Of a stretch of 64,000 nucleotides of DNA, positions 6,295 through 39,505 are shown piece after piece. The number at the start of each line of letters is the position of its first letter. Positions within the stretch are counted from its first letter, which is position 1. The notes under the pieces are model-generated. The model did not search any database, was not told the origin of the DNA, and was given only the letters and a program-made list of their open reading frames with translations. This DNA is from a virus (taxonomy: Duplodnaviria; Heunggongvirae; Uroviricota; Caudoviricetes), in IMG/VR virus record IMGVR_UViG_3300045988_138358; one strand, 5' to 3'. The position numbers and the translations under genes were made by a program.

Positions 6295-6300
6295 GTTTCA

Positions 6301-6344
6301 CCAATTGTGTTAGAAAATTCTATTCAATTATCTAACACAATTGG
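6301..6344. promoter_or_regulatory. inverted pair of TGTTAGA operator-like half-sites upstream of rdgC
   Basis: CCAATTGTGTTAGA ... TCTAACACAATTGG, perfect 14-bp inverted repeat with 16-bp spacer, ending 7 bp from the rdgC start. Confidence 0.55.
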
Positions 6345-6353
6345 ATGTGTTTT

Positions 6354-7007
6354 CTATCCCTTCTTGAAATCAAAGTTGCTTGCGATGGCCTGGAAGGTGC
6401 CTCCAGCCTTGAAATCAATATTTTCGTCGGCTGTCACAGTAATGTTTTTGCCATTAACGCTGATGTTATCGGCTGATTTGACGTTAACACTCCCTCCCGC
6501 ATTCACTACTACATCAGCCGGACCAATGATGTATATCTGCCCTGATTCATTCATTCCAATCCTTGAGCCTGCTGCCGTATTCGCTATTTCATATCCACCG
6601 CCAGCCGTTCGCACTTCGAGCACATTGTTGCGGTGAATCACGAAATCTTTTGTCGCCGAAAATTGCGGGCGGGGAGGCGCTCCGTCTACTTCTGGTGGCG
6701 TCCAGCCGCTACCATTGCCTGACGCCTCCGGCGCGACGTTTGGTACTCCTCCAGGCGCATCCTGAGCTGCGCCAACTATCATTGGGCGTCTGGTATCAAT
6801 TCGACCATTAACATCCAGATAAGGAAACTCTACCCATACCAGGTCGCCTTTTACTGTAGGTACAAACGCGTTACCTATGGGTAACAGGTATTCTGCCCAG
6901 GGTAGATCGTCATCAGGAACGCCATTCCAGTCTGGTAAAACACGGACCTGAGCACGCATAAGCCCTGCCGGGTGCACAGTTCCAACAATTTGCGCTCTAC
7001 GCTTCAT
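6354..7007 (-). CDS. baseplate spike / gpV-like protein (putative)
   Basis: N-terminal region resembles the gpV OB-fold pattern (IVGTV...RVLP...GDLVWVEF); C-terminal short repeats (NVKSADNISVNGKNITV) typical of spike beta-structure. Confidence 0.45.
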   Translation of the reverse strand: MKRRAQIVGTVHPAGLMRAQVRVLPDWNGVPDDDLPWAEYLLPIGNAFVPTVKGDLVWVEFPYLDVNGRIDTRRPMIVGAAQDAPGGVPNVAPEASGNGSGWTPPEVDGAPPRPQFSATKDFVIHRNNVLEVRTAGGGYEIANTAAGSRIGMNESGQIYIIGPADVVVNAGGSVNVKSADNISVNGKNITVTADENIDFKAGGTFQAIASNFDFKKG

Positions 7008-14867: not shown

Positions 14868-15260
14868 TTGAAAAGATTGGCTATTGCTTTACTGGCGTCT
14901 TTCCCTTTGATCGCGAGCGCCGGAAATTTACAAGTTAAGTGCGGTCGGTTTGATATAAAAATCTATCCAGATGCCATATTTCTGAATGGGAATAAGGTTG
15001 ATAACGCACACCGAAAAACTGAATCTGACGTAATGAGCTATGTGTTCCAGGAGTATGCGGAGATGGGGGGAACTTACACGCTGTACTCGCTGGATGTTCC
15101 TTCTCGCGGTGATATGACATTATCCCATCAATGGCAGAACGCCGATGGCGAAGCTCTGCGCGAGGTTAAAACAGAAAAATGTGGCACTTTCCATTCTTTT
15201 AAAGGGAAAGCGCCAAATGTTAAATCTGTGCTTGAAAAACAGCGCGCAGGTGAGCTTTAA
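14868..15260 (+). CDS. secreted protein, unknown function
   Basis: Classic signal peptide MKRLAIALLASFPLIASA. Confidence 0.55.
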   Translation: MKRLAIALLASFPLIASAGNLQVKCGRFDIKIYPDAIFLNGNKVDNAHRKTESDVMSYVFQEYAEMGGTYTLYSLDVPSRGDMTLSHQWQNADGEALREVKTEKCGTFHSFKGKAPNVKSVLEKQRAGEL

Positions 15261-16146
15261 ACACCTTTAACCACGGAGATGCCGTTCCCTGCACGATAGC
15301 GGCGGGGAACGGAATTCTCCATCAGGTCACGAATTACTCCCGCCTCATGTAGTTCCACTGTTTCCCAGTATCTGTTTGTCACCAATTACGCCCCTTTCCG
15401 CCAGGGGAAGGTATGAACGAGCTTCTGCTTCGGTTGCAGCCATGACGCAGATATACAGGTGTTTTTGGCAGGAATAGAAACGCCAGATAAATTCAGAATG
15501 AGTTGGGGTGGGGATAGTAGCGATATTGGCAGCCTCCTTTGACTAAGTTAAGGAGCTACCGCGTGAGGTTCCAATCCCGGCACCCGTTTTTCTAAGGTGC
15601 CGTAGAAATATACCCCACGATAAGGCCAGGGCGCAAAAGTCAGTATTTTATGCTTTGGCGGATTTCTTCCGGGCTTGCTTGCAGGCGTAGGCCATTGCTT
15701 TAGCTTTCACTTCATCCAGCTTCCCGGTGATCACTTCTTTTCCGAGAGTGACAAACCAGTCATAGCAACCGCCAGTGATGTTCTGGATTTGAAAGTTGAG
15801 GTAGCGAACGGTCATTTTGACACCCCCAGCGCGAGTAAAGAATGCAGATTATCGCGTGAGTGGCGGACAACGAGTGATGGGAAAAGACAGTAGCTGTTCA
15901 TAGTGTAGTGACTCCTTGCTTTCGGAGCCGCCTTCGACTGTTCCACGGTCTGGTGGCGGCGCAATAAAGGCTGGAACACCGTGAGTCAACGGGGGCTTTT
16001 CAGCCACCTATATTGCACCGCCATAGGTATAGCGGCGGCAATAATACGAAAAACTAAACAGTTTGTCTCAAAAAGTTGACCGGTGTGCCAATCGGTAGTG
16101 AATGTACATCGGAGAAATTTACAATTCAACTTAAAATGTTAGAAAA

Positions 16147-16725
16147 CTAATTTATCAATTCAATCGCCATCTGATACAACGTCATTTCATCGGCATTGTG
16201 CCGCATGAAATCTGCTTTTCCGCCTATTTTTCCATCAGCATGAACAGGGACCAGCCAGGGATATTGTTCTCGGACCTCGGCTGGCGCTGCGTACTGGTGG
16301 TGCCATTTACACAAAGGGAGGACATATTTATGCGCGTTCTCTGCCGTTCTCCCGAAGATATGGTGCAGGGATACCACTGGGCTATGTTGCCCGTGAATAT
16401 GGCAGGCAATGCAGGGGAGAGTACCGATAGCGGTCTGTATCCGGCGTTCATCGGCTGTGAGTGATCTGCCCTTCAGGCCGCGTGACGTGCGTGTTTTTTT
16501 GGGCGGAGCGGATACCGCTTTATCTTTTCTCCGCTGTTCATATTGCTTTGCTTTTTCAATTTTCTTTTGCCGATATTCAGGCGATGCGGCTTTTTCTCTC
16601 GCTCGCTGCTGCTGGCGTTGAGCTTGTTGAAGGCGCTTTGCCCTTTGTTCCTCTCGCCAGGCTGGGTCAGCCAATTTTTGCATGGCTTTTTGTCTCTGTT
16701 TCTCCCAATAACTCTGTTTCTGCAT
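16147..16725 (-). CDS. ref: HNH-type endonuclease, Ref-like (recombination enhancement function)
   Basis: 192 aa; basic N-terminus then HNH-like core (LPCIACHIHG...SLHHI...LPLCKWHH); size and operator-linked promoter match P1 Ref. Confidence 0.5.
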   Translation of the reverse strand: MQKQSYWEKQRQKAMQKLADPAWREEQRAKRLQQAQRQQQRAREKAASPEYRQKKIEKAKQYEQRRKDKAVSAPPKKTRTSRGLKGRSLTADERRIQTAIGTLPCIACHIHGQHSPVVSLHHIFGRTAENAHKYVLPLCKWHHQYAAPAEVREQYPWLVPVHADGKIGGKADFMRHNADEMTLYQMAIELIN

Positions 16726-16770
16726 GATGGCAGTCTCTTACTTTTCAACGATTTTTCTATGATTGATCAA

Positions 16771-16806
16771 AATTGTTAGATATTCAAAATTGATTTTCTA
16801 ACACAA
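16771..16806. promoter_or_regulatory. inverted pair of TGTTAGA operator-like half-sites, divergent promoter region
   Basis: AATTGTTAGA ... TTTTCTAACAC with 16-17 bp spacer between the Ref-like gene and the plus-strand accessory operon. Confidence 0.55.
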
Positions 16807-16997
16807 AATATTAATATCATTCCTGATAACTGTTTGGAGGACATGATGCTTATAGCTTTAAGTGCGATCCACCAGCCATCTGTGAATGAAATTGGCCTGT
16901 TCTATGTGTTGTTTTTCGGGGCGTTGGCGCTACTTGAGCTTGGTATTGAGCTTTTCGCAGTGCTTATGTTTTGCGTCACGATTTTGGGGAAATTTTG

Positions 16998-17621
16998 ATG
17001 GTGAAACGTGTTTTGAAAATTTACATCGCGGGGCCGATGACTGGTTATCCAGATTACAACCGTGCGGCGTTTAATGCGAAAGCGAGCGAGCTGATGGCTG
17101 AAGGGCATATCGTTCTGAATCCAGCTGTGTTACCTGGTGGCCTTTGTCAGAGTGAATACATGGATATTTGCCTGGCAATGGTGCGTTCTGCTGATGCGAT
17201 CTATCTGCTTAAGGGATGGGATGTGTCCGCAGGAGCACGTGCAGAACACGCTCTGGCTGAAAAACTGGGGTTGACGGTAATTTATGAAGCACCATCTGAC
17301 ACAGATTGCAGAATGGCAGCGCATCTTTACCGTGAACTGGTCGATGCGTTACGTGATGTTGCTATTGAATGTCACGGCACGGATCAGCTTCGCGCTCGCT
17401 TAAGCCAAACCCTTTCCAGTTACCTGTCTTTAGCTGAAGGATACAACCTCCGGCAGCGGAGAATGGTCAAATTAATCACGCGTTTATCTCAATCCCTGGC
17501 AAATGCCGAACCAACTAATCCGCTACCTAATGACGCAATGAATTATCTGAAGTCATGCGGCGTTGTTTCTGAAGATGCAGTTCGTTTTGTGGAGTTTATG
17601 TCTCAGAGGATGTCGGCGTGA
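16998..17621 (+). CDS. DUF4406-like (nucleoside 2-deoxyribosyltransferase-like) protein with C-terminal extension
   Basis: KIYIAGPMTG...N...F segment typical of DUF4406; start at internal Met. Confidence 0.45.
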   Translation: MVKRVLKIYIAGPMTGYPDYNRAAFNAKASELMAEGHIVLNPAVLPGGLCQSEYMDICLAMVRSADAIYLLKGWDVSAGARAEHALAEKLGLTVIYEAPSDTDCRMAAHLYRELVDALRDVAIECHGTDQLRARLSQTLSSYLSLAEGYNLRQRRMVKLITRLSQSLANAEPTNPLPNDAMNYLKSCGVVSEDAVRFVEFMSQRMSA

Positions 17622-17935
17622 GCTGGCGGGGATGGGGAAGGGCAGAAATCATGATACTCCGCCAGTGCGCCGGAACTATGACGGTAGAGAGTATTGGGAA
17701 GCTGATCGGTCGTACCGGTGATGCCGTCAGGACTAAAGCGCGAGAGCTGGGGATCAGAATGATTCTGAAAGGTGACTTTCACCAGTCAGCCAAATATCGG
17801 CAGAGCGATATAGAGCTGGCGCGGCAGCTTCATCAGTGCGGTGTTCCCCGCCGTGAGATCGCAGAAAAACTCGAAATGCCCCTGGGCATGATTAATCAGT
17901 ACGTTTATTTCGAAAGGAGAGTGCATGAAGTCTGA
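17618..17935 (+). CDS. hypothetical HTH-like protein
   Basis: 105-aa ORF overlapping neighbours by 4 nt. Confidence 0.4.
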   Translation: MSWRGWGRAEIMILRQCAGTMTVESIGKLIGRTGDAVRTKARELGIRMILKGDFHQSAKYRQSDIELARQLHQCGVPRREIAEKLEMPLGMINQYVYFERRVHEV

Positions 17936-18626
17936 AGGTTTAACGCCAGAGCAACTGGCGGAGATCGAGCTTTACTATCCGTTACGTGAACGTTATTCAC
18001 CGAAACCAGCGCCTAAATGCCCTGTTTGTGGCGAGGAAATGTCAATGCAGCGCATATCTGGATCACATGTTGTTTATGCCTGTTCCGGCATGGAGGATGA
18101 CGGATGCTTCAAAACTGGACGAACTTATGCTGACGAGCATTACAAAAATTCGCGCATATCAGTAGTTGATGGTAGCGATCCTGATGTGATTGAACTGCTT
18201 GACGAGAAAGTGGAGATGGCCCTAACGCTTGAGAAGCTGCGTGTTGAGCTGGAGGCCGCTAAAAAGTGTATTGCAGAGCTGGAAAGCAATAGCGGGGCGC
18301 TGGTGGCGGAATGCCAAAACAAAAAAGCAGCACTTGAGGCAATTCTTAGCCATCTCCCAATTAATCATCCAGATATAGACATCGCATGCGTAGCGAACAT
18401 AGCTCATAACGAGTTAGGTGAAGCGAAAAGCACTATATCTGAGGCTTATCTTGTAGAAATACAGGCTCAGGGATTGGAGGCATTCGCTTTGACGATGCGC
18501 GATACCGGAGATGATCCATTTTTTGATTCCGTTGCTTCTGCTTGCGCGGATGCGGCCGACAGGTTCGCAGCCCTGCTTCGTAAAGGACAATCCTGCCTGC
18601 GCCCGAACTTTGAAGGGGAAAGATGA
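17925..18626 (+). CDS. Ea22-like protein with N-terminal zinc ribbon
   Basis: C-terminal [27 protein letters not shown] matches the shared tail of the other paralogs here; CPVCGEE...YACSG cysteines at N-terminus. Confidence 0.55.
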
Positions 18627-18949
18627 TGACCACATCTCATTCTGCAATTACCCAGGAAAAAGCCTTCCACATACTCGAACGATTAGAAACGCTCGCTACG
18701 GAGGAGAAGATATCCCCGGAGATGCTGGTCGAGTGCAGCCGTGTGATATTGCGTCGCAAGAACGACATCGCGCGGCTGACATCTGGCGCACCATCCGTAT
18801 CAGCCAGTCCAACGCTTTATTGCAGCTTCTGCAACAAATCCCAGCACACCGTTAAAAAGTTAATTGCCGGGGACAACGCTTTCATCTGCAACGAGTGCGT
18901 GAAAGATTGCAACAACATTATCCAGGAAGAGCAAAGGGAATCAGCATGA
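18623..18949 (+). CDS. ClpX-type zinc-binding domain protein
   Basis: C-terminal [39 protein letters not shown] is near-identical in pattern to the ClpX N-terminal C4 zinc-binding domain. Confidence 0.7.
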
Positions 18950-19662
18950 AATTTTCCAAATTTTCTGAGTTGGTGAATCGTATTTTGTCCGACAACCACA
19001 GCCATCGTCGCGATATGGATGTAACGATCGTTGTTCATTCGCCTGGTCGCATCGGTTCAACACCATCAGTTGAGGTTCAGTCAATTCAGGTGGGTTTTGA
19101 TTGGGATGCCGGGAAAGTGCTGATTTTCCCAGCACAGCCACTGACCACGCTAACACCAGAACAGATTACTGATATCACGGATAGTGTGCGCAAAGGTCAG
19201 TCTTGGCACGCATATCAGGAATACAAGAAGCATAAAGAGCAGTTGGAAAAATTGTCGATTGAACTGGATGCTGCAAGACGGCGCATTACAGAACTGGAGA
19301 GCGAACGCGCGGTGCTGGCGGCGGAGAATGCGGAGCTGAAGTCTGTGCACCCTCAACCATTCGGAGCTGAGATGATGAAGGCTCTTGATGCGTATGAGAA
19401 GCATCAGGATGAAGTGCCAGAGACTGGAATGCTCAATGCATTTTTCATCTTGCGCGACAGTATCTGTGTTGACACCCCAGCCACCGATGCTTTCCTGGCT
19501 GAAGTACGGGCGCAGGGGGTAGAGATGTACGCAGATAACCTCGACAACGGAGCAGACGACGCAGAACGAGGTGGTTTTGATTATGCCGTTAAGTTTCTAC
19601 GCAGTGAAGCGTCTAGTGTACGTTTGTTCGCCGACCAGCTTCGCAAAGGAGGCAGCCAGTGA
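18946..19662 (+). CDS. Ea22-like protein
   Basis: Coiled-coil segment ([22 protein letters not shown]) and conserved [17 protein letters not shown] tail; start at internal Met with AAGGGAA site. Confidence 0.6.
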
Positions 19663-19952
19663 ATATCGACACGACAATAACGATCGATACGCTCCTAAAT
19701 ACCGGTCTGGCACTTCTCGGTTGGCTTTACATCATGTCCCGTACATGGCGATGGCTGGGTTCCATTTTCCTGAAACAGTGGAAAAAACGGCGCAAACAGG
19801 AACTACGCCAGAAGGCATTAGAAGCGTTCTATGACGCATTTGAACTTGGCAGCATTGAACCAGGCACAACAGCGAGGATAGCGACAAAAGGTGACCTGAT
19901 GATCGTGATGTTCCGACAGGAGAAAGCAAATGGCAGCAAAGCGAATGACTAA
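19659..19952 (+). CDS. small membrane protein, unknown
   Basis: 97 aa with one hydrophobic helix. Confidence 0.4.
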   Translation: MNIDTTITIDTLLNTGLALLGWLYIMSRTWRWLGSIFLKQWKKRRKQELRQKALEAFYDAFELGSIEPGTTARIATKGDLMIVMFRQEKANGSKAND

Positions 19953-20157
19953 TCGCGAACTTGTTGATGCCGCGATTGAACTTGCTGGCGATTTTTATTC
20001 CATGATGGGTTACGAGCATCGACCTGGTTTTAAGTATTGGGAGTCACCGCATCCGCAAGAACAACAGGTGTTTGAAATGGCCTGCCGCGCTTTTGAAGTT
20101 ATTCGCGGTTCTGATGTGATGGACGCGGTTGCTGATTTGGAGGATGTTGCAGAATGA
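19930..20157 (+). CDS. hypothetical protein
   Basis: 75-aa ORF coupled to neighbours. Confidence 0.4.
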
Positions 20158-20837
20158 TCACCGTTAACGACCAGGCGTTATATAGCCGTATTGATGGTTC
20201 AGGATACAGAAACATATGGGTTGTTGGTGATTTGCACGGTTGCTACACCCTGCTTATGAATGAACTCCATCGTGTGGATTTTGACCCGGCGCAGGATTTA
20301 CTGATATCAGTCGGCGACCTTATCGATCGCGGCACTGAAAATGTCGAATGCCTGGAGTTATTGCAAATGCCCTGGTTCCGGGCTGTCATGGGTAACCATG
20401 AGCGGTTGATGATCGATGCGTTAAGCCCAGCTGGAAACGTGAATAACTGGCTAATGAATGGCGGTCAGTGGTTCTTTATGCTGGATAGTGATAAGGAAGT
20501 TTTAGCCAGGGCGCTGGTGGAGCTGGTAAGGCAATTGCCTCATATCATTGAGCTGAACACCGGGCAGGAGACTATTGTCATTGCTCATGCTGACTATCCG
20601 GATAGAGAGTATCAGTTCGGTAAGGCTGTGCCGCTTTTCAATGTCATCTGGTCGCGCGACCGTGTTAGTGATTCGATAGATGGCATCGGTGAAGAAATTA
20701 CAGGTGCAGATCGATTTATCTTCGGACACACCCCGGCTAAAAGCCCAAAAGCATTCTGGAACCAGCATTATATCGATACTGGTGCTGTATTTTGCGGAAA
20801 CCTGACGCTAATGCAGGTGAAGGGAGGGCAATCGTAA
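20154..20837 (+). CDS. serine/threonine protein phosphatase (lambda PPase family)
   Basis: GDLHG, GDLIDRG and GNHE metallophosphatase motifs. Confidence 0.85.
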
Positions 20838-20867
20838 GCCGGGTTACATCGTTTACGCGCTCAAAAG

Positions 20868-20900
20868 TGTGTTAGATTGTTGATTTTAATTTTCTAACAT
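20868..20900. promoter_or_regulatory. inverted pair of TGTTAGA operator-like half-sites
   Basis: GTGTGTTAGA ... TTTTCTAACAT followed by TATTAT, upstream of the 20942 gene. Confidence 0.55.
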
Positions 20901-20941
20901 ATTATTTTACCGCTCGGAACAAAACAGAGTCGGTATGCATT

Positions 20942-21937
20942 ATGAGTGCAATAATCACCCCATATGTCGTAAATGAAACTGGTGTGGCTGTCTTTCCTGT
21001 AGATAAGCCCACCAGCAATTACATCGGCGCAGGCCGCCGTTTTCTTATCTCCCCATTGCCGCGCGAACAGGCTGAAAACACCCCTGATGGCGTCGTGGAC
21101 CTGAATTATTCCCTGGTTGCCAACCAGTCACTGACACCCTTTTTTCAAAGTGAGCGCGTATTTAATGCGTTAGGTGGCGAGGATTCTATCGTTCACTGGG
21201 TTAGCACCAACATTCACGATTGCCAGGCGCATGATAAGCGCGATTGTAGCCACCAGCTAACCACTCACTTCTATAACGGTTCTGCCGTTCGCCTGTGCTG
21301 GAAGCATGATGCGGAATACATGATGAAGGGGTACAGCAAGCTGGACGACCAGTTATCCCTGAATCGCGCCAACTGGGTTATGAACTGGGCTGCGAGCGAG
21401 TTAAAACTACCGCCAGAACGCGATCTGAGCATGGTTGAACTCACTTTTTGGGCCATTCGCCGGAATCTGAAAGATGAGCTGCCAGATGAAGCCGGGCGCA
21501 TTGCATTTTGTCAGCCAAAAACTGAAATCCCTACCGGTACGCTGAAAGAATCAGATATCACCTGGGAGCGCAGTACGCGCGAGCTGGTGGACATAACCGC
21601 AGAGCAGATCGTCAACCTGTCTGTAGATGAGGATTCTGGCCTCCTATATATGCGCCGTCCAAAAACCTTACTCGGAAAAAGCCCGGCTTATCTCCGCTTT
21701 GTGGTTTCTCGTCCGTGCATCGGATGCGGTGGCAAAGTTAACCACCCGTTCATGTACCGCGCCCGCTCGTTAAACGAACACGACCGCTGGGCTGTTCCTC
21801 TTTGCGATGACTGCGCCAGAAGCGCAGAAAACGATGTCCGGGCATGGGAAAAAGCACATGGCATACGCCTTTACGTAGCCGCTAACCAGCTTTTTGACTT
21901 CGCCATCGAGCGCGGAGTGATCACGTTCAATAACTGA
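20942..21937 (+). CDS. phage protein with C-terminal HNH-like Cys/His module
   Basis: C-terminal CIGCGGKVNHP...PLCDDCAR resembles the Cys/His core of the Ref-like protein at 16147-16725. Confidence 0.45.
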   Translation: MSAIITPYVVNETGVAVFPVDKPTSNYIGAGRRFLISPLPREQAENTPDGVVDLNYSLVANQSLTPFFQSERVFNALGGEDSIVHWVSTNIHDCQAHDKRDCSHQLTTHFYNGSAVRLCWKHDAEYMMKGYSKLDDQLSLNRANWVMNWAASELKLPPERDLSMVELTFWAIRRNLKDELPDEAGRIAFCQPKTEIPTGTLKESDITWERSTRELVDITAEQIVNLSVDEDSGLLYMRRPKTLLGKSPAYLRFVVSRPCIGCGGKVNHPFMYRARSLNEHDRWAVPLCDDCARSAENDVRAWEKAHGIRLYVAANQLFDFAIERGVITFNN

Positions 21938-21950
21938 TGGGAACAATGCA

Positions 21951-22250
21951 ATGAGTCAAGGTAATGGTGACGGAGCTGCAAAGTGCAGAATCTCCACTTG
22001 TTTGATTAATGACAAAAAAATAGAACCGTGCGCGGCGTTGGCACAATCTCTGGAGCAGGATGCTGAATACACGACGCGGAAAGGTCTGCTGAAATACAAA
22101 ATCTATAACCATGAATTAATTCATTCACAAGACCTGATCATGCTGCGATCAGGCGAGTTTTCTAAATCGCCGATTCGAATTTCATTTTGCCCGTTCTGTG
22201 GTGAAAGTCTGAAAACGCGGGAAGCGGAGGCAACCAGTGAGCAAAATTAA
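21951..22250 (+). CDS. hypothetical protein with possible zinc ribbon
   Basis: 99 aa; CxxxC...CPFCGE cysteines. Confidence 0.4.
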   Translation: MSQGNGDGAAKCRISTCLINDKKIEPCAALAQSLEQDAEYTTRKGLLKYKIYNHELIHSQDLIMLRSGEFSKSPIRISFCPFCGESLKTREAEATSEQN

Positions 22251-22854
22251 CTATCAAGAACTGCGCGAGGCGGCGGAACAGGCAACGCAAGATGAATGGG
22301 TAGCATATATTTTGCCGGGTCATAACGGCATTTATCCTGCGCGCACATCTGAGGGTAGGCATTGCGGATACTTTATTGACTGGCCTGGCATTGATGGACA
22401 AAGGAATGCTGGTGCTAATGCCCGTTATATCGCTGCTATCCCACCAAAAGTTGCGTTGTCACTACTGGATGAAATTAAACGTCAGGAGGACTCAAATATT
22501 GATGCTATGTGCCGTATTGCAGAGCTTGAAACTAATATCGCGGCGCTGGTGGCAGAGAACGCCGGACTGAAACACGCAATGGCCGTAACTCTTGAGCATG
22601 TGTCGGTAACGGATGCAGGGCAGGCCGGAGTTGCTGCGATGATTATTAATGATGCCCTGCACCACAGCGAAACGCCAGCTACCGACGCTTTCATGGCGGA
22701 AGTGCGGGCGCAGGGGGTGGATATGGCTCGTAACGCGATGATTGATTTTGTTGATGGTGAAGTTGGGCCAAACAAGAACGTTCCGGGTCTGATTAGAGGC
22801 GCAGAGATATGCGTAAGTATTGCTGAACAGCTTCGCAAAGGAGGCAACCAGTGA
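22237..22854 (+). CDS. Ea22-like protein
   Basis: INYQELREAAEQAT N-terminus and [16 protein letters not shown] tail shared with paralogs. Confidence 0.6.
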   Translation: MSKINYQELREAAEQATQDEWVAYILPGHNGIYPARTSEGRHCGYFIDWPGIDGQRNAGANARYIAAIPPKVALSLLDEIKRQEDSNIDAMCRIAELETNIAALVAENAGLKHAMAVTLEHVSVTDAGQAGVAAMIINDALHHSETPATDAFMAEVRAQGVDMARNAMIDFVDGEVGPNKNVPGLIRGAEICVSIAEQLRKGGNQ

Positions 22855-23336
22855 GCGAAATTAATTACCAGGCACTGCGTGAGGCGGCGGAACGTGCAAC
22901 TCCAGCAATGGAACGCCTGTTAATGTTGCCAGCTGATGATGATTTGTTAAGTGAACAGGAACTTAAAGATTACGGTGTGGATATTGATGCGCTCAACGCC
23001 TTCAAATTTCTGATCGGACCAGAAACCGTGCTGGCGCTGCTGGATGAACGGGAAAGAAACCAGCAATACATAAAACGCCGCGATCAGGAGAACGAGGATA
23101 TTGCGCTAACGGTAGGGAAGCTGCGCGTTGAGCTTGAGGCAGAAAAACAGCGGGCAAAGGATCTGTTTATGGAAAATGCTCGGCTTAAGTCAGGTATAGC
23201 CGGTCTGATACACCTCGGTATTCGATATGCGGATGTTGAGGTCATGAAAATTGCTGGAGATGCCCAGCTTTCTACCCCATGCACTGACAGCATCATAAAC
23301 AGCATTGCAACAGGCATTCGCATCGAAGGAGAGTGA
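22851..23336 (+). CDS. Ea22-like protein
   Basis: INYQALREAAERAT N-terminus, same paralog family. Confidence 0.55.
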   Translation: MSEINYQALREAAERATPAMERLLMLPADDDLLSEQELKDYGVDIDALNAFKFLIGPETVLALLDERERNQQYIKRRDQENEDIALTVGKLRVELEAEKQRAKDLFMENARLKSGIAGLIHLGIRYADVEVMKIAGDAQLSTPCTDSIINSIATGIRIEGE

Positions 23337-23337
23337 C

Positions 23338-24111
23338 ATGACCACTTTAACCGACAAAGAACTGATTAAAGAAATCAAAGAGCGCATAGGCAGCTTGGAC
23401 GTTCGAGACAATATTGAGCGCCGTGCTTATGAAATTGCACTGGCATCGATGGAAGCAGATCCAGTTGCTTATATTTTCAAACATCCGGCCGGGAAATTAT
23501 TCTGGGCTTTAACGGATGAAAGCAATAAAGAGCAAGCGGACGTTATTCCTGTTTATGCCGCCCCTCCAGTACCAGTAGTACCTGCTGCATTACCTGAGAA
23601 CGACGATGATGACGGGCATGACATTGATTATCTTGAGCCATCTGAAGTTTACTCGCTTGGGCGAACAGCTGGCTGGAACGCCTGCCGTGCTGCCATGCTT
23701 CATGGTGCCGAACCTGTAAGCCAAACTTACAAGTTGCCTCCCCTGTCATCCAACGAAGTAAACGACGCGGCATGGAAATTACGCAACATGCTTACTGAAC
23801 ACGGTCCTCTTAATGGGCGTCAGTTCAACAATCTGAAAGGTTGCTTCTATGAGGCATTAAAGGTCGCAATGCGCAACTATCCGGTAACTCCGGATGGTTG
23901 GATAAGCTGTAGTGAGCGAATGCCGGATACCAAAACAGCCGTTCTTGTTGCCAAGGAGTTTGATAGGAAAGGTGACTGGCGAATGAAATGGGCGACTTAC
24001 ATCCCGGGGCATCCTGACGCTAATGATGGGTGGATCATTCCTGGGGCGTCGTGGAAACCGTCACACTGGATGCCGCTACCAGAACCGCCGCAGGAGGTTA
24101 ACCGTGGCTAA
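23338..24111 (+). CDS. DUF551-like protein
   Basis: C-terminal WISCSERMPD...WMPLPEPP typical of DUF551; start at internal Met with GAAGGAGAG site. Confidence 0.55.
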   Translation: MTTLTDKELIKEIKERIGSLDVRDNIERRAYEIALASMEADPVAYIFKHPAGKLFWALTDESNKEQADVIPVYAAPPVPVVPAALPENDDDDGHDIDYLEPSEVYSLGRTAGWNACRAAMLHGAEPVSQTYKLPPLSSNEVNDAAWKLRNMLTEHGPLNGRQFNNLKGCFYEALKVAMRNYPVTPDGWISCSERMPDTKTAVLVAKEFDRKGDWRMKWATYIPGHPDANDGWIIPGASWKPSHWMPLPEPPQEVNRG

Positions 24112-24385
24112 CCTTCAACTGGCAGTTAACGGTGAATATTTCGACCAGATGAAGTCTGGAGAGAAAACGGAAGAGTATCGCTTGTGTAATGACTACTGGA
24201 ATAAGCGAATTCTGTTCCGCGAGTATGACCGCCTGATTATCACAAAGGGATATCCGAAGCGCGATGATTCCAGCCGCAGAATAGACGTCCCGTATGACGG
24301 ATATGAAATCAAGACAATCACGCATCCCCACTTCGGCGATAAACCGGTAAAGGTTTACGCGATAAAGGTAAATATCAATGGCTAA
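24104..24385 (+). CDS. small ASCH/PUA-like protein (tentative)
   Basis: Probable GTG start after CAGGAGG; the ORF track extends upstream into the previous gene. Confidence 0.35.
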   Translation: MANLQLAVNGEYFDQMKSGEKTEEYRLCNDYWNKRILFREYDRLIITKGYPKRDDSSRRIDVPYDGYEIKTITHPHFGDKPVKVYAIKVNING

Positions 24386-24782
24386 ATTTCAAAGAAATAT
24401 TATTTTTCTGGCAATGTTATCTGCCTGTCATTTATCTCATGCATCGGTTATTGCTGCGGGAGCTGCGGCAACCGCTGTAATTAGCGCCTCATCCGCCAGC
24501 GAGCATGAGCAACGTACTGCAATCAATGCATCTGCCAATACCACCACGGTATCAGTAACACAAGAAAAGCCGAATATCGGCTTTGTTACTTGTGGCAAGC
24601 GATATGGTGAAATGGTTGGCTCTCTTGGTTGCGTAATGTGGCAAGACGACGACCGAACAGAAATTCCGTGGAACTCATGGCCTGGCTACATTCTTGGTAA
24701 GAAGCTGCCCACCAGCTATGAAGTAAATGCTATTTCGTTCGACCAATATAACAGTGTTGCAACGGTCTATTTCTCTTATTAA
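24378..24782 (+). CDS. secreted protein, unknown
   Basis: Signal-like N-terminus NIIFLAMLSACHLSHA. Confidence 0.45.
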   Translation: MAKFQRNIIFLAMLSACHLSHASVIAAGAAATAVISASSASEHEQRTAINASANTTTVSVTQEKPNIGFVTCGKRYGEMVGSLGCVMWQDDDRTEIPWNSWPGYILGKKLPTSYEVNAISFDQYNSVATVYFSY

Positions 24783-24794
24783 CACGGAGTAATT

Positions 24795-25088
24795 ATGTGG
24801 CGCGGTAATAATCATGGTGGAAGCCAGATGATACTTACCGAATATCAGCTCGACCACAAAACCAATAAATCACGCTCAGTATATTTGCTTCGGCACAATA
24901 GCCGCGTAAGGAATACCGTGCTGGAGCAAAATCTGACCGTTGAAATGGATAATTCGGGGAACTTCAAGCCAACAATTTCGCTTGATGATTTTCCGCGTGG
25001 TTTAAGCGAAAGAGAAGCCATGCTGAAATTAGCAGAATGGCTTCAGAGGTTAAGTATTGTTATTGAAGATAACTGGAGTCAACCATAA
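24795..25088 (+). CDS. hypothetical protein
   Basis: 97-aa ORF. Confidence 0.4.
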   Translation: MWRGNNHGGSQMILTEYQLDHKTNKSRSVYLLRHNSRVRNTVLEQNLTVEMDNSGNFKPTISLDDFPRGLSEREAMLKLAEWLQRLSIVIEDNWSQP

Positions 25089-25343
25089 TGAAAAACAGAA
25101 AGAAATTTTGGATTACTTTTTTGTTTGTATGCCTTTGCGGTTTATTTATTTTATTAGCTGGTGGTGTTAAATGGGGTACGGTGGGGTGTGGTTTTTGGAG
25201 CGGGGTTACTCTTTTCGCAGCCTGGCTTATCGCCAACTTTGAGTCAGGCGGAGGGTATTGGTAAGTGGTCTTATTCCCCACTTCATAACGGATATCACGC
25301 TCGTGATAACGGATATTCCAATTTTGATAACGGATAAGGCCAA

Positions 25344-25553
25344 ATGAAGCATTTTTTAAGGTTGGCATTTGTTCTGGCGCTATTTGATCCTCCGGCTGCA
25401 ATGGCTGGAGAACAGCAACATTGCACAAAAGAGAATGAACCCCCTTTCATCGTTATTCAATGCGATGACGGAACGGTGACTGTGGTTAATGTAAGAAATG
25501 ACCGTGTAGCTGTTTGCCGTAAAGGCGAACCATGCAAGGAAATAAAACTATGA
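25344..25553 (+). CDS. small secreted protein
   Basis: Signal peptide MKHFLRLAFVLALFDPPAAMA. Confidence 0.4.
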   Translation: MKHFLRLAFVLALFDPPAAMAGEQQHCTKENEPPFIVIQCDDGTVTVVNVRNDRVAVCRKGEPCKEIKL

Positions 25554-26308
25554 CAAGAATCACTAAAGAGCGTATTTCAGATATTATTTCCCGTATCGAA
25601 ATGTATGGTCACGGTGCTGGATATACGGCAGATGAAGTATTGGCACTTGCCCAAATGGCTTTGGCGGCTTGCAAAGATGATAAAAAAATGAAGCTTATCG
25701 ACTTGTTAGTGAAGGAGCTGCCTAAGTGCGGCGGGTGGCCTGATGGTATGATCGATTGTCGCCTGCTCAGTGCCAATTTAATGGCGCCATGCGCGACTTT
25801 TGCTTTTGGCTCAGACCACAAAAAAGACACGTTCTTTGGGCGCAATTTTTGTTGTGAGATTGAGCTTCCAATTGGTGACCTTGATAGCGATGAATACCTG
25901 TCAGTTGTCACTCGCGAACAATACGAATCAGCTCTCATAGCGTCGCAGAAAGTCGAGTTCAATGGTGATGAACTTGAAAGTAAGACTTACAGGTTGGATT
26001 TTGGGCAATGGCTGGAACAGCAACGCGGGAAAATCGATGTGGACTGTGGTTGTGTGTCCACTGAAACATTCATGCACTGGCTGCGGGTAGCTTACGAGGC
26101 TGGCAACCATCCGGATTTTCCGGATAGTTCCCAACAATCGCCCAAGAAAAGCGTAAAAACCACTCTGGAAAGAGGCTATCTTGAGGCCGCATTAAAGATT
26201 AAGCCTGGCCATACGCTAGGCGTCATTGATGCCATGTTGGTTCATGAAATGGCGAAGGCTTTATTGCCGCTGGTGGCTGATAAAATTCCGAATAAAGCCG
26301 ATATCTGA
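25550..26308 (+). CDS. hypothetical protein
   Basis: Start at internal Met (MTRITKER), 4-nt overlap with upstream stop. Confidence 0.45.
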   Translation: MTRITKERISDIISRIEMYGHGAGYTADEVLALAQMALAACKDDKKMKLIDLLVKELPKCGGWPDGMIDCRLLSANLMAPCATFAFGSDHKKDTFFGRNFCCEIELPIGDLDSDEYLSVVTREQYESALIASQKVEFNGDELESKTYRLDFGQWLEQQRGKIDVDCGCVSTETFMHWLRVAYEAGNHPDFPDSSQQSPKKSVKTTLERGYLEAALKIKPGHTLGVIDAMLVHEMAKALLPLVADKIPNKADI

Positions 26309-26347
26309 TCACCATGCTAAAATCCCCTCAATTCACAGAGGGGATTT

Positions 26348-26620
26348 TTGTATATGTTGCATAGAGTTTTATGGAAAAGCGTTATTGTCGGCGCGATACT
26401 GGCTATATCTGGGTGTGCAATGGTGCAATACAACGACGGTGAAAAGGTAAGCATACAGTCAGATGGTTGGTATGGCCTGGATAGCCTGCAAAAAACCGCA
26501 GATAAAGCCTGTCAGCAATATGGGAAGTCTAAAGCAGTATATCAGCATAGCGCGAACGCTAACCCTCATCTAGCGCCCGGTTCTGGTGTTCAGAATACCA
26601 TCTGGAAATGTGAGCCTTAA
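26348..26620 (+). CDS. small lipoprotein (putative)
   Basis: Signal peptide ending in lipobox-like LAISGC. Confidence 0.45.
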
Positions 26621-26622
26621 AT

Positions 26623-26874
26623 ATGAGCGACTGGAATATTGCAGCTAAAAGTCAGGAAGAACGGGATAAGGTTAACGTTGATCTGGCTGCCAGCGGTGTG
26701 GCGTACAAAGAGCGATTGAACATACCTGTCATAGCTGAACAGGTAGCCCGCGAGCAACCAGAGAATCTGCGCACCTATTTCATGGAACGGCTACGGCACT
26801 ACCGGCAGTTAAGCCTCCAGTTGCCAAAAGGGAGCGATCCGGTGTATCAGAACGAGGATGCACCAAAAAAATAG
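26623..26874 (+). CDS. hypothetical protein
   Basis: 83-aa ORF 3 nt after previous stop. Confidence 0.4.
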
Positions 26875-26959
26875 CGGCAAGATGGGGGAGAAATGTGATT
26901 AGCCCCCAGCGTGGCGCGCCTACAAACCCAGCTTTCACAAACTATGCCTTTTCAATGTA

Positions 26960-26979
26960 TACTGTATGAATAAACAGTA
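26960..26979. promoter_or_regulatory. LexA (SOS) box upstream of humD
   Basis: TACTGTATGAATAAACAGTA fits CTGT-N8-ACAG, centred about 30 bp before the humD start. Confidence 0.75.
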
Positions 26980-26997
26980 TCATTAAGGTAAAACGCT

Positions 26998-27387
26998 ATG
27001 GGCTTCCCTTCTCCTGCGGCGGATTATGCAGAGAGCCGCATTTCTCTTGATCAGCAACTAATCAGACATCCTTCCGCGACCTACTTCATGCGGGCGGCAG
27101 ACAGCCATCACCGTGAGGGAATATTGCAAGGTGCTTTGCTGGTGGTTGATTCCTCACTTACTCCGGTTGATGGTTCACTGCTTATATGCGCTATGGAGGG
27201 TGAATATCGCATAAAGAGATACAGGAAGTATCCGCGCCAGCACCTGGAGGATTTAAGCACCGGGAAGAAAGAGGCGTTACCAGTAGATGACGATGGATAC
27301 ACGGGCAGTAATGCTGTTTTTGGTGTGATCACTCATGTCATCAATGATGCCCGAAGTGGGGAGTTTGATTATAGACCTGTGATTTAA
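26998..27387 (+). CDS. humD: UmuD'-like protein (pre-processed form), HumD-like
   Basis: MGFPSPAADYAE... aligns with UmuD starting just after its autocleavage site; Ser and Lys of the S24 dyad appear retained; no umuC follows. Confidence 0.75.
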   Translation: MGFPSPAADYAESRISLDQQLIRHPSATYFMRAADSHHREGILQGALLVVDSSLTPVDGSLLICAMEGEYRIKRYRKYPRQHLEDLSTGKKEALPVDDDGYTGSNAVFGVITHVINDARSGEFDYRPVI

Positions 27388-27432
27388 GGCGCATAAAGAA
27401 GCCCGCCAGACCAGGCGGGCTTTTTGTTGATA

Positions 27433-28527
27433 TCATTCAATGATTTTTTCGGCTGTCAGCCAGCTAATTTCGTGCCTGTCTTTCGGCGGTTTTAGCATGT
27501 GAGCATATTCAGCGACATGCTCCCACGGAATTGTTTTTGCCCACTCAACGATAGCATTGTGATCTGCAGTGAAGAGTGGAATAGTGTGCGATTTCAACCA
27601 TTCTAATGTCGTGACGCCATGTTTTTTGGCGTGGTGCTGCGCATGATGCCGGGCTATCACTCGTAATGGCATTGTCCATTCACTACCATCAGGCATCGAA
27701 AAGCGCATTGTCTTCGGCATATCTGATTCAAGAACAGCCTCCCTAATACCAGGGAACTCACCAAGAATCATACGACGATAGTCATCACTATTTCGCCCGC
27801 CATACCTTTCGGCAAAATGATCAAGATATTCTTGGGTAATAAATGGTGAATCCTCCGCACTCAGCTTAATGGCTTTATATACACCACTCGGATTATCTTC
27901 AGCTAAAGCACGTCCATGATGTGAATCATAAAAAAAGCCTATTTCCTCTGGTGACGGAATTGAAGTGAGCAATATGCGTGAATCACCACTAGTCATGCTT
28001 GCCCACACAATGCTGTATGCCCGATCGCTGATATGTGCGGAATCCACAATAATGAATAAAAGATGGTCGGCGTAGTGACCTGCAATGCTATCTTCATAGT
28101 TAAGGCGGTAGTTACAAAAGCACATTCCCCAAAATTCATTGAACATCAGACCGCTATCACCGACCTTAAAATACTCAATGATAAAAGGTTGTTTTTTCAG
28201 CAATGCCTCCCAACATTGCCACACATATGCAACAATTCCTCTTTTGCAAACATTTGATTTTGGATAAACAATTACTGTCCGGGAATCAGGATACATAATC
28301 GTATAAAGGGTACTAATAACAGCAAGCACTTGCGGTCGTCCGATCCCATACGGAGTGGTGACAGTAGCTTTTGCATTATTGGGCTGTATAGCTTCAACAA
28401 TTTGTTGTTGCTGGTGGCTTAAATCAATATCAAACAATTCTTTTGCTGCCAGTACCCAATTGTCTTTATATTTCTCCACCAGCGACAGCCAGCGCGGATC
28501 TTTATAAATATTGCTCTTAGTCGCCAT
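27433..28527 (-). CDS. terminase large-subunit paralog with degenerate ATPase motifs and divergent C-terminus
   Basis: Aligns with PacB-like protein at 33675-35183 (HQQQQIVEAIQ, FYDSHHG...NP.G...I.L..E.SPF), but Walker A GTGKS is replaced by GIGRPQ and Walker B DE by DS; start at internal Met. Confidence 0.55.
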   Translation of the reverse strand: MATKSNIYKDPRWLSLVEKYKDNWVLAAKELFDIDLSHQQQQIVEAIQPNNAKATVTTPYGIGRPQVLAVISTLYTIMYPDSRTVIVYPKSNVCKRGIVAYVWQCWEALLKKQPFIIEYFKVGDSGLMFNEFWGMCFCNYRLNYEDSIAGHYADHLLFIIVDSAHISDRAYSIVWASMTSGDSRILLTSIPSPEEIGFFYDSHHGRALAEDNPSGVYKAIKLSAEDSPFITQEYLDHFAERYGGRNSDDYRRMILGEFPGIREAVLESDMPKTMRFSMPDGSEWTMPLRVIARHHAQHHAKKHGVTTLEWLKSHTIPLFTADHNAIVEWAKTIPWEHVAEYAHMLKPPKDRHEISWLTAEKIIE

Positions 28528-29284
28528 CTGCCACTTCCTTAACTTCTTCTTTGGCCTGTTCTGCAATCGCCGCACGGCATTTCGCCCTGGCCGTAGCGAT
28601 TGCTTCAGCACGCACATCATCAGGAATCGTTGACGTGATATACATATCCAGTTCTTCGGCGCGGAACACTGTTTGGTCCAGATATTCGCGTAGCATCCAG
28701 GTAAATTCGAAATCACACGCGATAATCTCTGCGCTACCTTCTGCACCATTTGGGAAATGAATAAAAGCCTGTTTAGCCAAACCGATAACACGACATGCGG
28801 TTGCCAAAACAGCGGCAACCAGGTTTACATTTTCACACGCTACGGGCTGATTAACGCCGGAGATTACTCCATTTAACTGTCGGTTATATGGAAGGTAGTT
28901 TGAGATGCGTTCTACGCGCCATGTGCCAGTCAGGCTGCCATTCTTAAAGATAATTGGTGTAACGGATAGCCCAAGCTCGCGTATAAGTCGTTGCGCTATA
29001 GCAGGATCATTAAACATGTCTAATGCTACACATTCGAAAGACTGTGCAAGGGTAAACAGTTCTTCCAGAGAGTAGTCTTTGCCCCTGGCGGTGATGTAAC
29101 GATGAACGCCGCTTTCTGCATCACTCCATATAGCTACGCCATGCTCTTCATTCAGCTCTTCATTAAAGCCGAGATACGTCATGATAGTACGTTCAATCGT
29201 GTCAAACGGCAGTGACATGTCGGCGTTAACAGCCACCAGCAGGCCATTACGCAAGCGGTATTGAATTGCTTTAGTATTTTCCAC
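28517..29284 (-). CDS. hypothetical protein
   Basis: 255-aa ORF in the dUTPase operon. Confidence 0.5.
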   Translation of the reverse strand: MENTKAIQYRLRNGLLVAVNADMSLPFDTIERTIMTYLGFNEELNEEHGVAIWSDAESGVHRYITARGKDYSLEELFTLAQSFECVALDMFNDPAIAQRLIRELGLSVTPIIFKNGSLTGTWRVERISNYLPYNRQLNGVISGVNQPVACENVNLVAAVLATACRVIGLAKQAFIHFPNGAEGSAEIIACDFEFTWMLREYLDQTVFRAEELDMYITSTIPDDVRAEAIATARAKCRAAIAEQAKEEVKEVADGD

Positions 29285-38465: not shown

Positions 38466-38541
38466 TGGTGGCCCCTACCGGACTTGAACCGGTGACCGTG
38501 CGATTATGAGTCGCCAGCTCTAACCACTGAGCTAAAGGGCC
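38466..38541 (-). tRNA. tRNA-Ile (anticodon CAT, ileX-like; Met not excluded)
   Basis: Reverse complement folds as a canonical cloverleaf with anticodon loop CTCATAA and encoded CCA; very close to E. coli ileX as recalled. Confidence 0.8.
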
Positions 38542-38953: not shown

Positions 38954-39040
38954 TGGCGGAGAGTAATGGAATCGAACCATCATCGCTTGCGCAATGGGAC
39001 GGTTTTCAAGACCGCTTGAGCACCATGCTCCCTACTCTCC
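38954..39040 (-). tRNA. class II tRNA, probably Ser (anticodon TGA), atypical D-arm
   Basis: 87 nt; 7-bp acceptor stem, anticodon loop CTTGAAA, long variable arm, T-arm GATGG-TTCGATT-CCATT, G73, CCA; D-arm does not fold canonically. Confidence 0.45.
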
Positions 39041-39500: not shown

Positions 39501-39505
39501 TGTGT

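Follow-up and report, generated by a model that had tools for sequence, protein, structure and literature searches.

The ref-humD interval of a D6-type phage-plasmid

The window, that is the whole 64,000-nucleotide (nt) stretch of IMG/VR virus record IMGVR_UViG_3300045988_138358 analysed here, carries between the genes ref and humD a run of small genes that a reading of the letters without database searches (the sequence-only reading) had described as a lambdoid-style accessory block inside a P1-family backbone. The backbone assignment was borne out and can be narrowed: judged from its sequence, the window is a D6-lineage (P1-related) Escherichia coli phage-plasmid, local blastn alignment with phage D6 covering 56,656 nt (56.7 of 64 kb) at 87-97% identity, in D6 order. 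Most genes in the D6 record are annotated 'similar to P1 gene ...'. The block itself is quite probably a resident early accessory region of this phage-plasmid, with a vertically inherited skeleton and two sub-slots whose cassettes are exchanged with lambda-like prophages.

The block consists of 23 co-directional, mostly overlapping plus-strand genes between ref and a terminator following humD; it sits between leftward ref and rightward hot-humD on a D6-type backbone. The announced 10 kb or so of co-directional small genes was found as an unbroken run from 16843 to 27387, in which the overlaps are mostly of 1-23 nt, indicating translational coupling. The start proposed earlier (16971) was a mechanical TTG; the DUF4406 gene starts with ATG at 16998, and 16843-16998 is the gene that opens the unit. 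The features are listed below (aa, amino acids; Stx, Shiga toxin; D6-like loci, those of D6 and nine D6-like plasmids). An Rfam search of the whole window found no RNA family within the block.

16147-16725, minus strand: Ref, left flank; Pfam RecA_dep_nuc.
16774-16813: promoter/operator region 1, ref/DUF4406 divergent intergenic region; inverted TGTTAGA...TCTAACA pair, promoter-like TTGATT-N16-TAATAT, putative D6-type C1 operator.
16843-16998, plus strand: 51-aa hydrophobic/membrane protein, first gene of unit 1, homologue of D6 orf88; GGAGG ribosome-binding site upstream.
16998-17621, plus strand: DUF4406 protein (nucleoside 2-deoxyribosyltransferase-like), skeleton; Pfam 7.6e-34, phrog_355, 10/10 D6-like loci.
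17651-17935, plus strand: 94-aa DNA-binding/transcription-regulator-like protein, skeleton; phrog_323 2.2e-24, 89-99% aa identity in 10/10 D6-like loci.
17925-18626, plus strand: Ea22-like protein a, sub-slot 1; Pfam Ead_Ea22 5.8e-10, phrog_368 5e-45, 7/10 D6-like loci, replaced in pTB423.
18623-18949, plus strand: stand-alone ClpX N-terminal C4 zinc-finger protein, sub-slot 1; Pfam zf-C4_ClpX 1.8e-17, 6/10 D6-like loci.
18946-19662, plus strand: 238-aa Ea22 relative, sub-slot 1, absent from D6; phrog_368 2.4e-51, phrog_6026, BLASTP to 22237-22854 4e-14.
19648-19662, plus strand: junction copy 1, GGAGGCAGCCAGTGA; ribosome-binding site and GTG start overlapping TGA stop; D6 homology restarts at 19649.
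19659-19952, plus strand: DUF4752 protein, skeleton; Pfam 4.1e-42, 10/10 D6-like loci, 56% aa identity to an Stx1-phage protein.
19930-20157, plus strand: 75-aa protein, skeleton; 90% identity to phiV10 gp47, phrog_4132.
20154-20837, plus strand: Ppp, lambda-PP-type Ser/Thr phosphatase, orthologue of P1 Ppp; Pfam Metallophos, PDB 1G5B E 2.7e-96.
20870-20909: promoter/operator region 2, ppp/DUF968 intergenic region, start of unit 2; putative D6-type C1 operator, exact core in 9/10 D6-like loci.
20942-21937, plus strand: DUF968/HNH-like protein, P1 PdcB paralogue, skeleton; Pfam 1.3e-44, phrog_96, 95-100% aa identity in 10/10 D6-like loci, 38% to P1 PdcB.
21951-22250, plus strand: 99-aa protein, like D6 orf99 and P7 upf87.4; 8/10 D6-like loci, also SJ46.
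22226-22240, plus strand: junction copy 2, GGAGGCAACCAGTGA; D6 homology stops at 22268, just within the conserved Ea22 N-terminus.
22237-22854, plus strand: Ea22-like protein b, opens sub-slot 2; Pfam Ead_Ea22 1.2e-24; N-motif, coiled coil, C-terminal module.
22840-22854, plus strand: junction copy 3, GGAGGCAACCAGTGA; pTB423 homology breaks at ~22890.
22851-23336, plus strand: Ea22-like protein c; Pfam Ead_Ea22 6.3e-33; N-motif, coiled coil, short C-terminus; 92% nt patches to phiV10 and Stx1 phage.
23338-24111, plus strand: mosaic protein with C-terminal DUF551 domain; Pfam DUF551 2.2e-21, HK022 nt patches.
24104-24385, plus strand: ASCH-domain-type protein (label from homologues); phrog_625, 85-92% aa identity to HK022, phiV10, Stx1 phage and RCS47 ASCH proteins.
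24378-24782, plus strand: 134-aa predicted lipoprotein; lipobox LSAC at residues 14-17, phrog_8805.
24795-25088, plus strand: 97-aa protein; 93% aa identity in RCS47 and SJ46.
25088-25264, plus strand: 58-aa membrane protein, very hydrophobic; maximum 19-residue hydropathy 2.62.
25344-25553, plus strand: 69-aa protein with signal-like N-terminus; phrog_20764.
25550-26308, plus strand: 252-aa mosaic protein related to P1 PmgT/PmgU-region proteins; 36% aa identity at the P1 locus, 73% in SJ46; short nt patches to the P1 pmgT/pmgU region.
26319-26348, plus strand: terminator-like hairpin, 11-bp stem then T run.
26348-26620, plus strand: 90-aa predicted lipoprotein; lipobox ISGC, 6/10 D6-like loci.
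26623-26874, plus strand: Hot, DNA polymerase III theta subunit homologue; Pfam DNA_pol3_theta 4.6e-34, 94% aa and 95.7% nt identity to P1 hot.
26934-26979, plus strand: humD promoter-like element overlapping LexA box TACTGTATGAATAAACAGTA; P1 annotates a LexA site at the equivalent place.
26998-27387, plus strand: HumD, UmuD' analogue; Pfam Peptidase_S24, 96% aa identity to P1 HumD.
27399-27425, plus strand: GC-rich hairpin and T run after humD, a likely terminator (read from the sequence), right end of the region.

Pfam confirmed the DUF551, ClpX zinc-finger and HumD assignments of the sequence-only reading. The secreted proteins or lipoproteins that it announced are supported by the two lipoboxes, by the signal-like N-terminus of the 69-aa protein and by the very hydrophobic 58-aa protein. 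No Pfam match at E<=0.01 was obtained with the ASCH-type protein. The DUF551 and 252-aa proteins have phrog_60, 924 and 3323 in common and look like module-shuffled relatives. A 26-nt inverted repeat (92% complementary) lies in their genes (23875-23900 / 26104-26129) and may be chance.

A conserved skeleton and two variable sub-slots

The locus was compared in a tblastn matrix with those of D6 and the nine D6-like plasmids, of P1, RCS47 and SJ46, and of HK022, phiV10 and an Stx1 phage. The genes for the DUF4406, DNA-binding, DUF4752, 75-aa, Ppp, DUF968 and HumD proteins were found in the same order in 10/10 D6-like elements, at 77-100% aa identity for the skeleton genes, except for DUF4406 in three of them (69-70%). 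As far as the sequences tell, variation is confined to two sub-slots within this resident, lineage-conserved region. Sub-slot 1 (17925-19662) holds Ea22-like a, the ClpX-finger protein and the 238-aa Ea22 relative; sub-slot 2 (22237 to ~26620) holds two Ea22-like genes, the DUF551, ASCH and envelope protein genes, the 252-aa mosaic protein gene and the lipoprotein gene. Annotated maps agree with the tblastn split between skeleton and cassette genes. The comparison with P1 and D6 relatives that the sequence-only reading had proposed therefore defines a variable part, but leaves a skeleton that is kept throughout the D6-like set. Synteny across the P1 family, which would speak against import into a variable slot, was found for the skeleton in the D6 lineage, but neither for the sub-slots nor in the P1 lineage.

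Plasmid counts agree with this division. In PLSDB, coverage of at least 80% was obtained in 107 plasmids for skeleton segment 19659-22250, in 9 for sub-slot 1, and in 2 for 22237-24385, the first 2.1 kb of sub-slot 2. The whole block was at least 80% covered in 5 plasmids only and in 6/5426 E. coli genomes, and no record with the identical combination was present in PLSDB or among the 5426 RefSeq complete E. coli genomes. In other D6-like plasmids the same region holds a PAPS-reductase family gene (L012 8080-8952), TnpB (L013 4759-5967) or a toprim-domain gene (L016 12751-13275), which indicates that the sub-slots take quite different cargo.

In D6 itself, the ref-humD interval (orf88-orf108; NC_050154 / MF356679, 76.7-85.8 kb) has the flanks (ref; hot, humD), strand and skeleton order of the window, with 86-94% nt identity over 15572-22268 and 91.6% over humD, and operator-like sites at matching positions. 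It differs in the absence of the 238-aa gene 18946-19662 (window 18932-19648 is unmatched in D6) and in the presence of orf91 and orf96, which the window block does not have. The right half of the D6 interval (orf100-orf106) is entirely different DNA in place of window 22269-26901; D6 (orf106) and some relatives have a minus-strand gene where the window has the 90-aa lipoprotein gene. D6 also carries phd/doc after humD, and the window element does not.

The best overall match is E. coli plasmid pTB423 (NZ_CP034790), which together with about 100 other D6-like plasmids forms rep_cluster_1704. It matches 91% of the block at 98.1% identity, with 99.7% over 23692-27999, and it is also devoid of phd/doc. 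However, it has a different ClpX-finger gene in place of window 17964-18646 (Ea22-like a), and its second Ea22 gene is separated from its DUF551 gene by an extra ~750 bp carrying two small genes.

In P1-like phage-plasmids the homologous position, upstream of hot-humD, is the pmgT-humD interval, already called 'highly variable region 8' (PMC9603915). In Punavirus RCS47, this region holds Ea22-like, DUF551, Eaa and ASCH genes, the 97-aa protein gene and the same 15-nt junction. The gene set upstream of hot-humD differs between relatives, RCS47 and SJ46 carrying other sets there. In the P1 lineage ppp belongs to another operon, pmgN-pmgQ, and is set apart by pmgR, pmgS and pap; the operators have the P1-type sequence ATTGCTCTAATAAATTT, and DUF4406, DNA-binding protein and DUF4752 genes lie outside that interval. 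The P1 interval compared was P1 75.8-93.0 kb, and the absence of Ea22 in P1 holds for that interval only.

Putative operators and transcription units

The P1 C1 operator consensus, searched with up to 3 mismatches, has no match in the window. A lineage-specific motif was therefore sought by k-mer counting. The operator-like motif AAATTA(A/G)(T/A)TTTCTAACA(C/T)A is present 14 times in the window, compared with about 2 occurrences expected for its 8-nt core TTTCTAAC, and 13 times in D6, compared with 2.8 expected. The window sites are as follows.

6309, 16138, 16795, 20891, 31138, 32361, 32539, 40733, 40889, 42139, 43182, 48682, 53088, 54288: operator-like motif.

Their positions parallel those of the P1 C1 operators: two are just upstream of c1, one is just upstream of the C4 RNA region and one is in the ref intergenic region. 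The C4 antisense RNA was found by Rfam with its a1/b1 target, in the P1-type immI layout (minus strand 52784-52990). The 3' half of the motif resembles the P1 operator. The 14 sites are probably a hetero-immune, D6-type C1 operator set.

Two sites belong to the block, at 16795 (the interval separating ref from the first gene) and at 20891 (the ppp/DUF968 interval). Both are in a 40-nt repeat (16774-16813 / 20870-20909), each copy of which contains an inverted half-site and a weak promoter-like TTGATT-N16/17-TA...T. The ref/DUF4406 site is kept in 10/10 D6-like loci and the ppp/DUF968 site in 9/10, and neither is present in P1-lineage loci. Upstream of humD, a promoter-like element overlaps a near-consensus LexA box; it was the only call in the block in a sigma-70 scan, in which matches were fewer than in shuffled sequences.

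With two operator-like motifs and a LexA box, the block is linked to the regulation of the element itself. We infer that it comprises two putatively repressor-controlled early units and an SOS-controlled humD. Unit 1 would run from the membrane protein gene to ppp (16843-20837) and unit 2 from the DUF968 gene to hot (20942-26874), each starting behind a promoter-like element overlapped by a candidate D6-type C1 operator; unit 3 would be humD, behind its LexA box. With such operators, units 1 and 2 would be silent in the plasmid prophage and expressed early after infection or induction.

Recombination breakpoints had been proposed at the flanking operators. This proposal was rejected: homology with D6 and other relatives is continuous through both sites, D6 homology running through the ref/DUF4406 operator region, and the internal 20891 site is no breakpoint.

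P1-family genes and lambdoid cassettes

The phosphatase had been classified as PP2B (calcineurin) type. This class was rejected: residues 9-225 of Ppp match the lambda phosphatase 1G5B over its full length (E 2.7e-96), whereas calcineurin-type entries match residues 21-71 only (E ~1e-4), and the motifs GDLHG, GDLIDRG and GNHE are read in the translation. Ppp shares 86% aa and 84.7% nt identity with P1 ppp. Against the P1, RCS47 and SJ46 proteins, identities are 86% for Ppp, 94-96% for Hot and 95-97% for HumD, and the homologous P1 interval is annotated with ppp, hot, a LexA site and humD. Because they are P1-family orthologues within a syntenic skeleton, these genes are a family property and not lambdoid imports. 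The description of the gene set as lambdoid fails for Ppp, Hot and HumD; it is supported in the sub-slots, where patches of 88-98% nt identity are shared with lambdoid and epsilon15-like phages.

HK022 is 98.2% identical to the window over 23313-23584 and 91.9% over 23873-24376, and phiV10 and the Stx1 phage share several patches of 100-300 nt at 88-97%. The genes concerned (Ea22-like, DUF551, ASCH, DUF4752) are early-region genes in these three phages, located either between the recombination genes and xis/int or at the end of that region. Of 5426 complete E. coli genomes, 3714 contain matches to parts of the block, in 7233 chromosomal and 1218 plasmid places. RCS47 carries Ea22, DUF551 and ASCH cassettes between pap and hot, so that 'lambdoid, not P1' is true only of the homologous interval of reference P1. 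About 30% of genes in P1-like elements have been classed as recently exchanged, defence systems among them (PMC10879196). Both the variability of the position and the lambdoid similarities are already recorded, the former as variable region 8 and the latter in the D6 GenBank notes, which list lambdoid and P22-like similarities of these ORFs, to genes of mEpX2, ES18, SPN1S, phiV10, mEp213 and 933W.

The nearest lambdoid counterpart is the exo-xis (ea) region (lambda ea22; HK022, Stx phages), where Ea22 proteins combine a head and a coiled coil with interchangeable C-terminal domains, a build that the window proteins may share, and where DUF551 and ASCH follow in the same order as in the window, in tightly coupled, early-expressed genes (PMC10834534, PMC7093339). 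The window block differs in being flanked by ref and humD, without the exo/bet (or erf) and xis/int flanks. Among block proteins, Pfam detected no homologues of orf60a (DUF1317), orf61, orf63 (DUF1382) or orf73 of that region, Ea22-type genes being the only ones found. Control of the block would be by a P1-family repressor, as suggested by the operator-like sites, in contrast to pL/N in the exo-xis region.

These data bear on the idea that all 10.4 kb of the block came in as a unit, a lambdoid early region placed in a single variable slot of a P1-type backbone. Lambdoid or phiV10-type phages do have close relatives of the Ea22, DUF551, ASCH, DUF4752 and 75-aa proteins, the phosphatase belongs to the lambda type, and the homologous interval of reference P1 is devoid of Ea22, DUF551 and ASCH genes. 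For the block as a unit, the idea is nevertheless already contradicted, and we consider it scarcely tenable. First, the skeleton is syntenic in all ten D6-like elements, and Ppp, Hot and HumD are in P1-family order. Second, DUF4406, the DNA-binding protein, DUF968 and the ClpX-finger protein are in none of the three lambdoid loci examined (HK022, phiV10, Stx1 phage). Third, D6 homology is continuous across the left edge, the G+C content of the block equals that of the backbone with no compositional shift, and lineage-specific operator-like sites lie inside the block. Of the proposed mosaic exchange into a variable slot, the exchange with lambdoid phages is thus retained, but it concerns two sub-slots and not one imported 10-kb unit.

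Ea22-like proteins

Five Ea22-like paralogues had been counted. Four proteins (17925-18626, 18946-19662, 22237-22854, 22851-23336) are mutually related by BLASTP and all match phrog_368. Three of them pass the Pfam Ead_Ea22 (PF13935) cut-off of 27, with 40.3 bits for 17925-18626, 87.9 for 22237-22854 and 114.7 for 22851-23336; the 238-aa protein 18946-19662 is below it and is tied to the family via phrog_368 and BLASTP only. The DUF551 protein would make a fifth relative solely on the ground that one Stx-phage Ea22 variant has DUF551 as its C-terminal domain (PMC10834534). The two motifs quoted in the sequence-only reading were found: in the whole 64 kb, INYQxLREAAE is present at 22246 and 22860 only and the C-terminal motif at 19483 and 22681 only. 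Two proteins thus have the N-terminal motif and two the C-terminal motif, of which a third has a diverged copy.

Ea22 proteins are built in three parts: a short segment at the N-terminus, a coiled coil in the centre and a distinct C-terminal domain (PMC10834534). When the window proteins are aligned, head and core (including ...ELE...) are common and the ends differ. In Ea22-like a, a Cys-rich N-terminus is followed by a coiled coil and by a C-terminal module that has diverged; the 238-aa relative has a distinct N-terminal domain, a coiled coil and a C-terminal module ending in ...LRKGGSQ. An AlphaFold2 (AF2) model of 22237-22854, built from the four window paralogues, has helices at 6-15 and 70-120, the second one long, and a C-terminal part that is also helical. 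Given its low confidence (predicted local distance difference test, pLDDT, 54), it was used for secondary structure only, and as such would be compatible with the three-part build. The lambda Ea22 C-terminal domain is alpha/beta (PMC10834534), whereas the C-terminal part of the low-confidence model is all-helical. A search of solved structures with two of the Ea22-like proteins gave no meaningful match, and provides no link to the lambda Ea22 C-terminal domain.

The four genes could be tandem duplicates that diverged inside the element, which would then have grown from within and not by exchange. The genes 22237-22854 and 22851-23336 are adjacent. Short DNA repeats are present among the Ea22-like genes, namely a 66-nt head including the ribosome-binding site (85% identity), a 43-nt coiled-coil core, a 57-nt C-terminal motif (84%) and a 33-nt tail (91%); those at heads and tails, 33-66 nt long and 84-91% identical, would make unequal crossing-over possible. 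Annotated Ea22-like genes also vary in number, from 1 to 4 per D6-like plasmid. However, the four proteins share just 26-41% identity by BLASTP, over partial lengths, whereas each is 92-100% identical to a copy in another element, in different combinations and positions; they are therefore not recent in-place duplicates. Some patches are also 92% identical to phiV10 and Stx-phage genes. Duplication as the origin of these genes is accordingly very unlikely, and changes in copy number by unequal crossing-over are compatible with the cassette exchange that we favour, so that they do not make a full alternative.

A recurrent junction between cassettes

The 15-mer GGAGGCAACCAGTGA contains GGAGG, five bases, and a GTG start overlapping a TGA stop, and is almost invariant within the joint formed by the tail of one gene and the head of the next. 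The block has three copies of it (19648, 22226, 22840), the only ones in the 64 kb. Every D6-like block contains one to five copies and RCS47, SJ46 and phiV10 one or two each, joining differing gene pairs. The corresponding 17-mer (with the two following bases) was found in more than 120 IMG/VR contigs, mostly of 30-50 kb, where it usually joins ...QLRKGGNQ* to MS(K/E)I(D/N)YQALRE. Over 160 distinct contexts, the sequence around the junction is conserved between about -20 and +60 and falls to near background outside these limits. In independently chosen loci, the junction precedes 19/23 Ea22-type N-termini.

Comparison with 12 relatives gave 73 distinct homology breakpoints, 58% of which are within 60 nt of a gene boundary, compared with 30% at random (0/2000 random sets reach 58%). 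Several are at or just within the joints (19649, 22268, ~22890), and intragenic breakpoints concentrate in multi-module proteins. This pattern is consistent with homologous recombination at conserved gene ends.

Lambdoid genomes have conserved boundary ('linker') sequences at module junctions, according to the classical model of modular evolution. The window junction resembles such linkers in being a short conserved sequence with unrelated flanks and coinciding homology breakpoints. It differs in that it doubles as a translational-coupling signal and is common to lambda-like prophages and P1/D6-type plasmid prophages, and its role in recombination is putative. Whether the ~80-nt joint (tail ...QLRKGGNQ, GGAGGCAACCAGTGA and head MSxINYQxLREAAE) is, beyond a coupling signal, a portable, connector-like recombination joint is a tentative and rather doubtful proposal drawn from the sequence patterns.

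Possible functions of the cassettes

The experimental anchors of the block are by homology only, and concern the lambda-type phosphatase, Hot (theta), HumD (UmuD') and Ea22. Ea22 of lambda and Stx phages is mosaic and tetrameric, and favours lysogeny (PMC7093339, PMC10834534). By analogy, the Ea22-like proteins of the window probably bias the lysis/lysogeny decision.

The sub-slots might instead form a defence or counter-defence island, turned over by conflict between phage and host immunity and not by lysis/lysogeny tuning. Variable regions of temperate phages and phage-plasmids often hold such genes, and exchanged defence systems are listed in PMC10879196. The two lipoproteins, the membrane protein and the secreted protein could serve superinfection exclusion, and relatives carry a PAPS-reductase family, TnpB or toprim-domain gene in the same slots. 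Against this, none of the ten block proteins tested matched a PADLOC defence model, and Ea22, the sole family with experimental data, affects lysogenization and not defence (PMC7093339). We regard a defence island as unlikely.

The ClpXP protease degrades P1 Phd, so that the ClpX zinc-finger protein 18623-18949 might modulate ClpX. No correlation was seen between the presence of the ClpX-finger gene and that of phd/doc among the D6-like relatives compared.

Other features of the window

The relatives of the window are phage D6 and a large set of ~90-kb non-mobilizable plasmids of E. coli, Salmonella and Shigella, with a single replicon type. Four tRNA genes (Met, Ser-tga, Thr, Arg-tct) lie at 38466-39660 on the minus strand; the D6 record annotates three (Ser, Thr, Asn). 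Both tRNA genes and a C4 RNA are also features of P1-family elements. The D6 glutaminyl-tRNA synthetase gene (D6 59925-61586) and tciA/tciB (D6 6279-6877) are missing, with short bridges at 3681-3819 and 38681-38718 instead. Segment 14282-15404, which has no D6 alignment, stands in for the D6 simB-to-icd region (D6 72288-75059); it contains a 130-aa ORF (14868-15260) with a signal-like N-terminus and no Pfam match. The D6 genes after humD (the phd/doc addiction module, pdcA and orf109) are absent from window 27388-28544. They are replaced by a 364-aa minus-strand ORF (27433-28527) without a Pfam match, as they are in pTB423 and pEHP91H1.

Discussion

Chiefly, the analysis corrects an impression: the apparent foreign lambdoid island is best explained as the element's own early accessory region, in which two sub-slots turn over. 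The DUF4406, DNA-binding, DUF4752, 75-aa, Ppp, DUF968, Hot and HumD genes would be inherited vertically within the lineage. The sub-slots would hold interchangeable cassettes of Ea22-type coiled-coil, ClpX zinc-finger, DUF551, ASCH and small envelope proteins, in exchange with other D6/P1-type elements as well as with lambda-like prophages of the chromosome. The route would be homologous recombination at short conserved gene ends, for example where a ...QLRKGGNQ tail meets GGAGGCAACCAGTGA and an MSxINYQxLREAAE head.

Several observations weigh against parts of this interpretation. The promoter scan made no call at the two operator sites, where 8/12 consensus matches were read by eye, and the operator assignment is drawn from motif enrichment and position only. 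The structure model of Ea22-like b is of low confidence (pLDDT 54). Four of the 23 Ea22-type N-termini are not preceded by the junction (two in the Stx1 phage, one in phiV10 and one in SJ46), and the IMG/VR contexts were chosen by the junction itself, which biases the conservation profile at its centre; translational coupling alone may explain conservation of the 15-mer. The ends of BLAST alignments only approximate recombination breakpoints, and exchange may have run from phage-plasmid to lambdoid phage or the reverse.

The arrangement is an ordinary new combination of a kind already known and leaves current understanding unchanged. It provides a usable map (skeleton, sub-slots, putative operators and junctions) for comparisons among D6/P1-type phage-plasmids, elements that are frequent in E. 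coli and Salmonella and in some cases bear resistance genes. The recurrent junction is a small testable lead on cassette exchange, and the only element that might repay further work. If it is a portable joint, short-homology recombination could shift early cassettes between a chromosomal lambda-like prophage and a P1/D6-type plasmid prophage of the same cell, and Ea22 genes would bring the exchange sites in addition to being cargo. The comparison also shows concretely that these plasmid prophages share one pool of early 'dark-matter' genes with lambda-like prophages of the chromosome.

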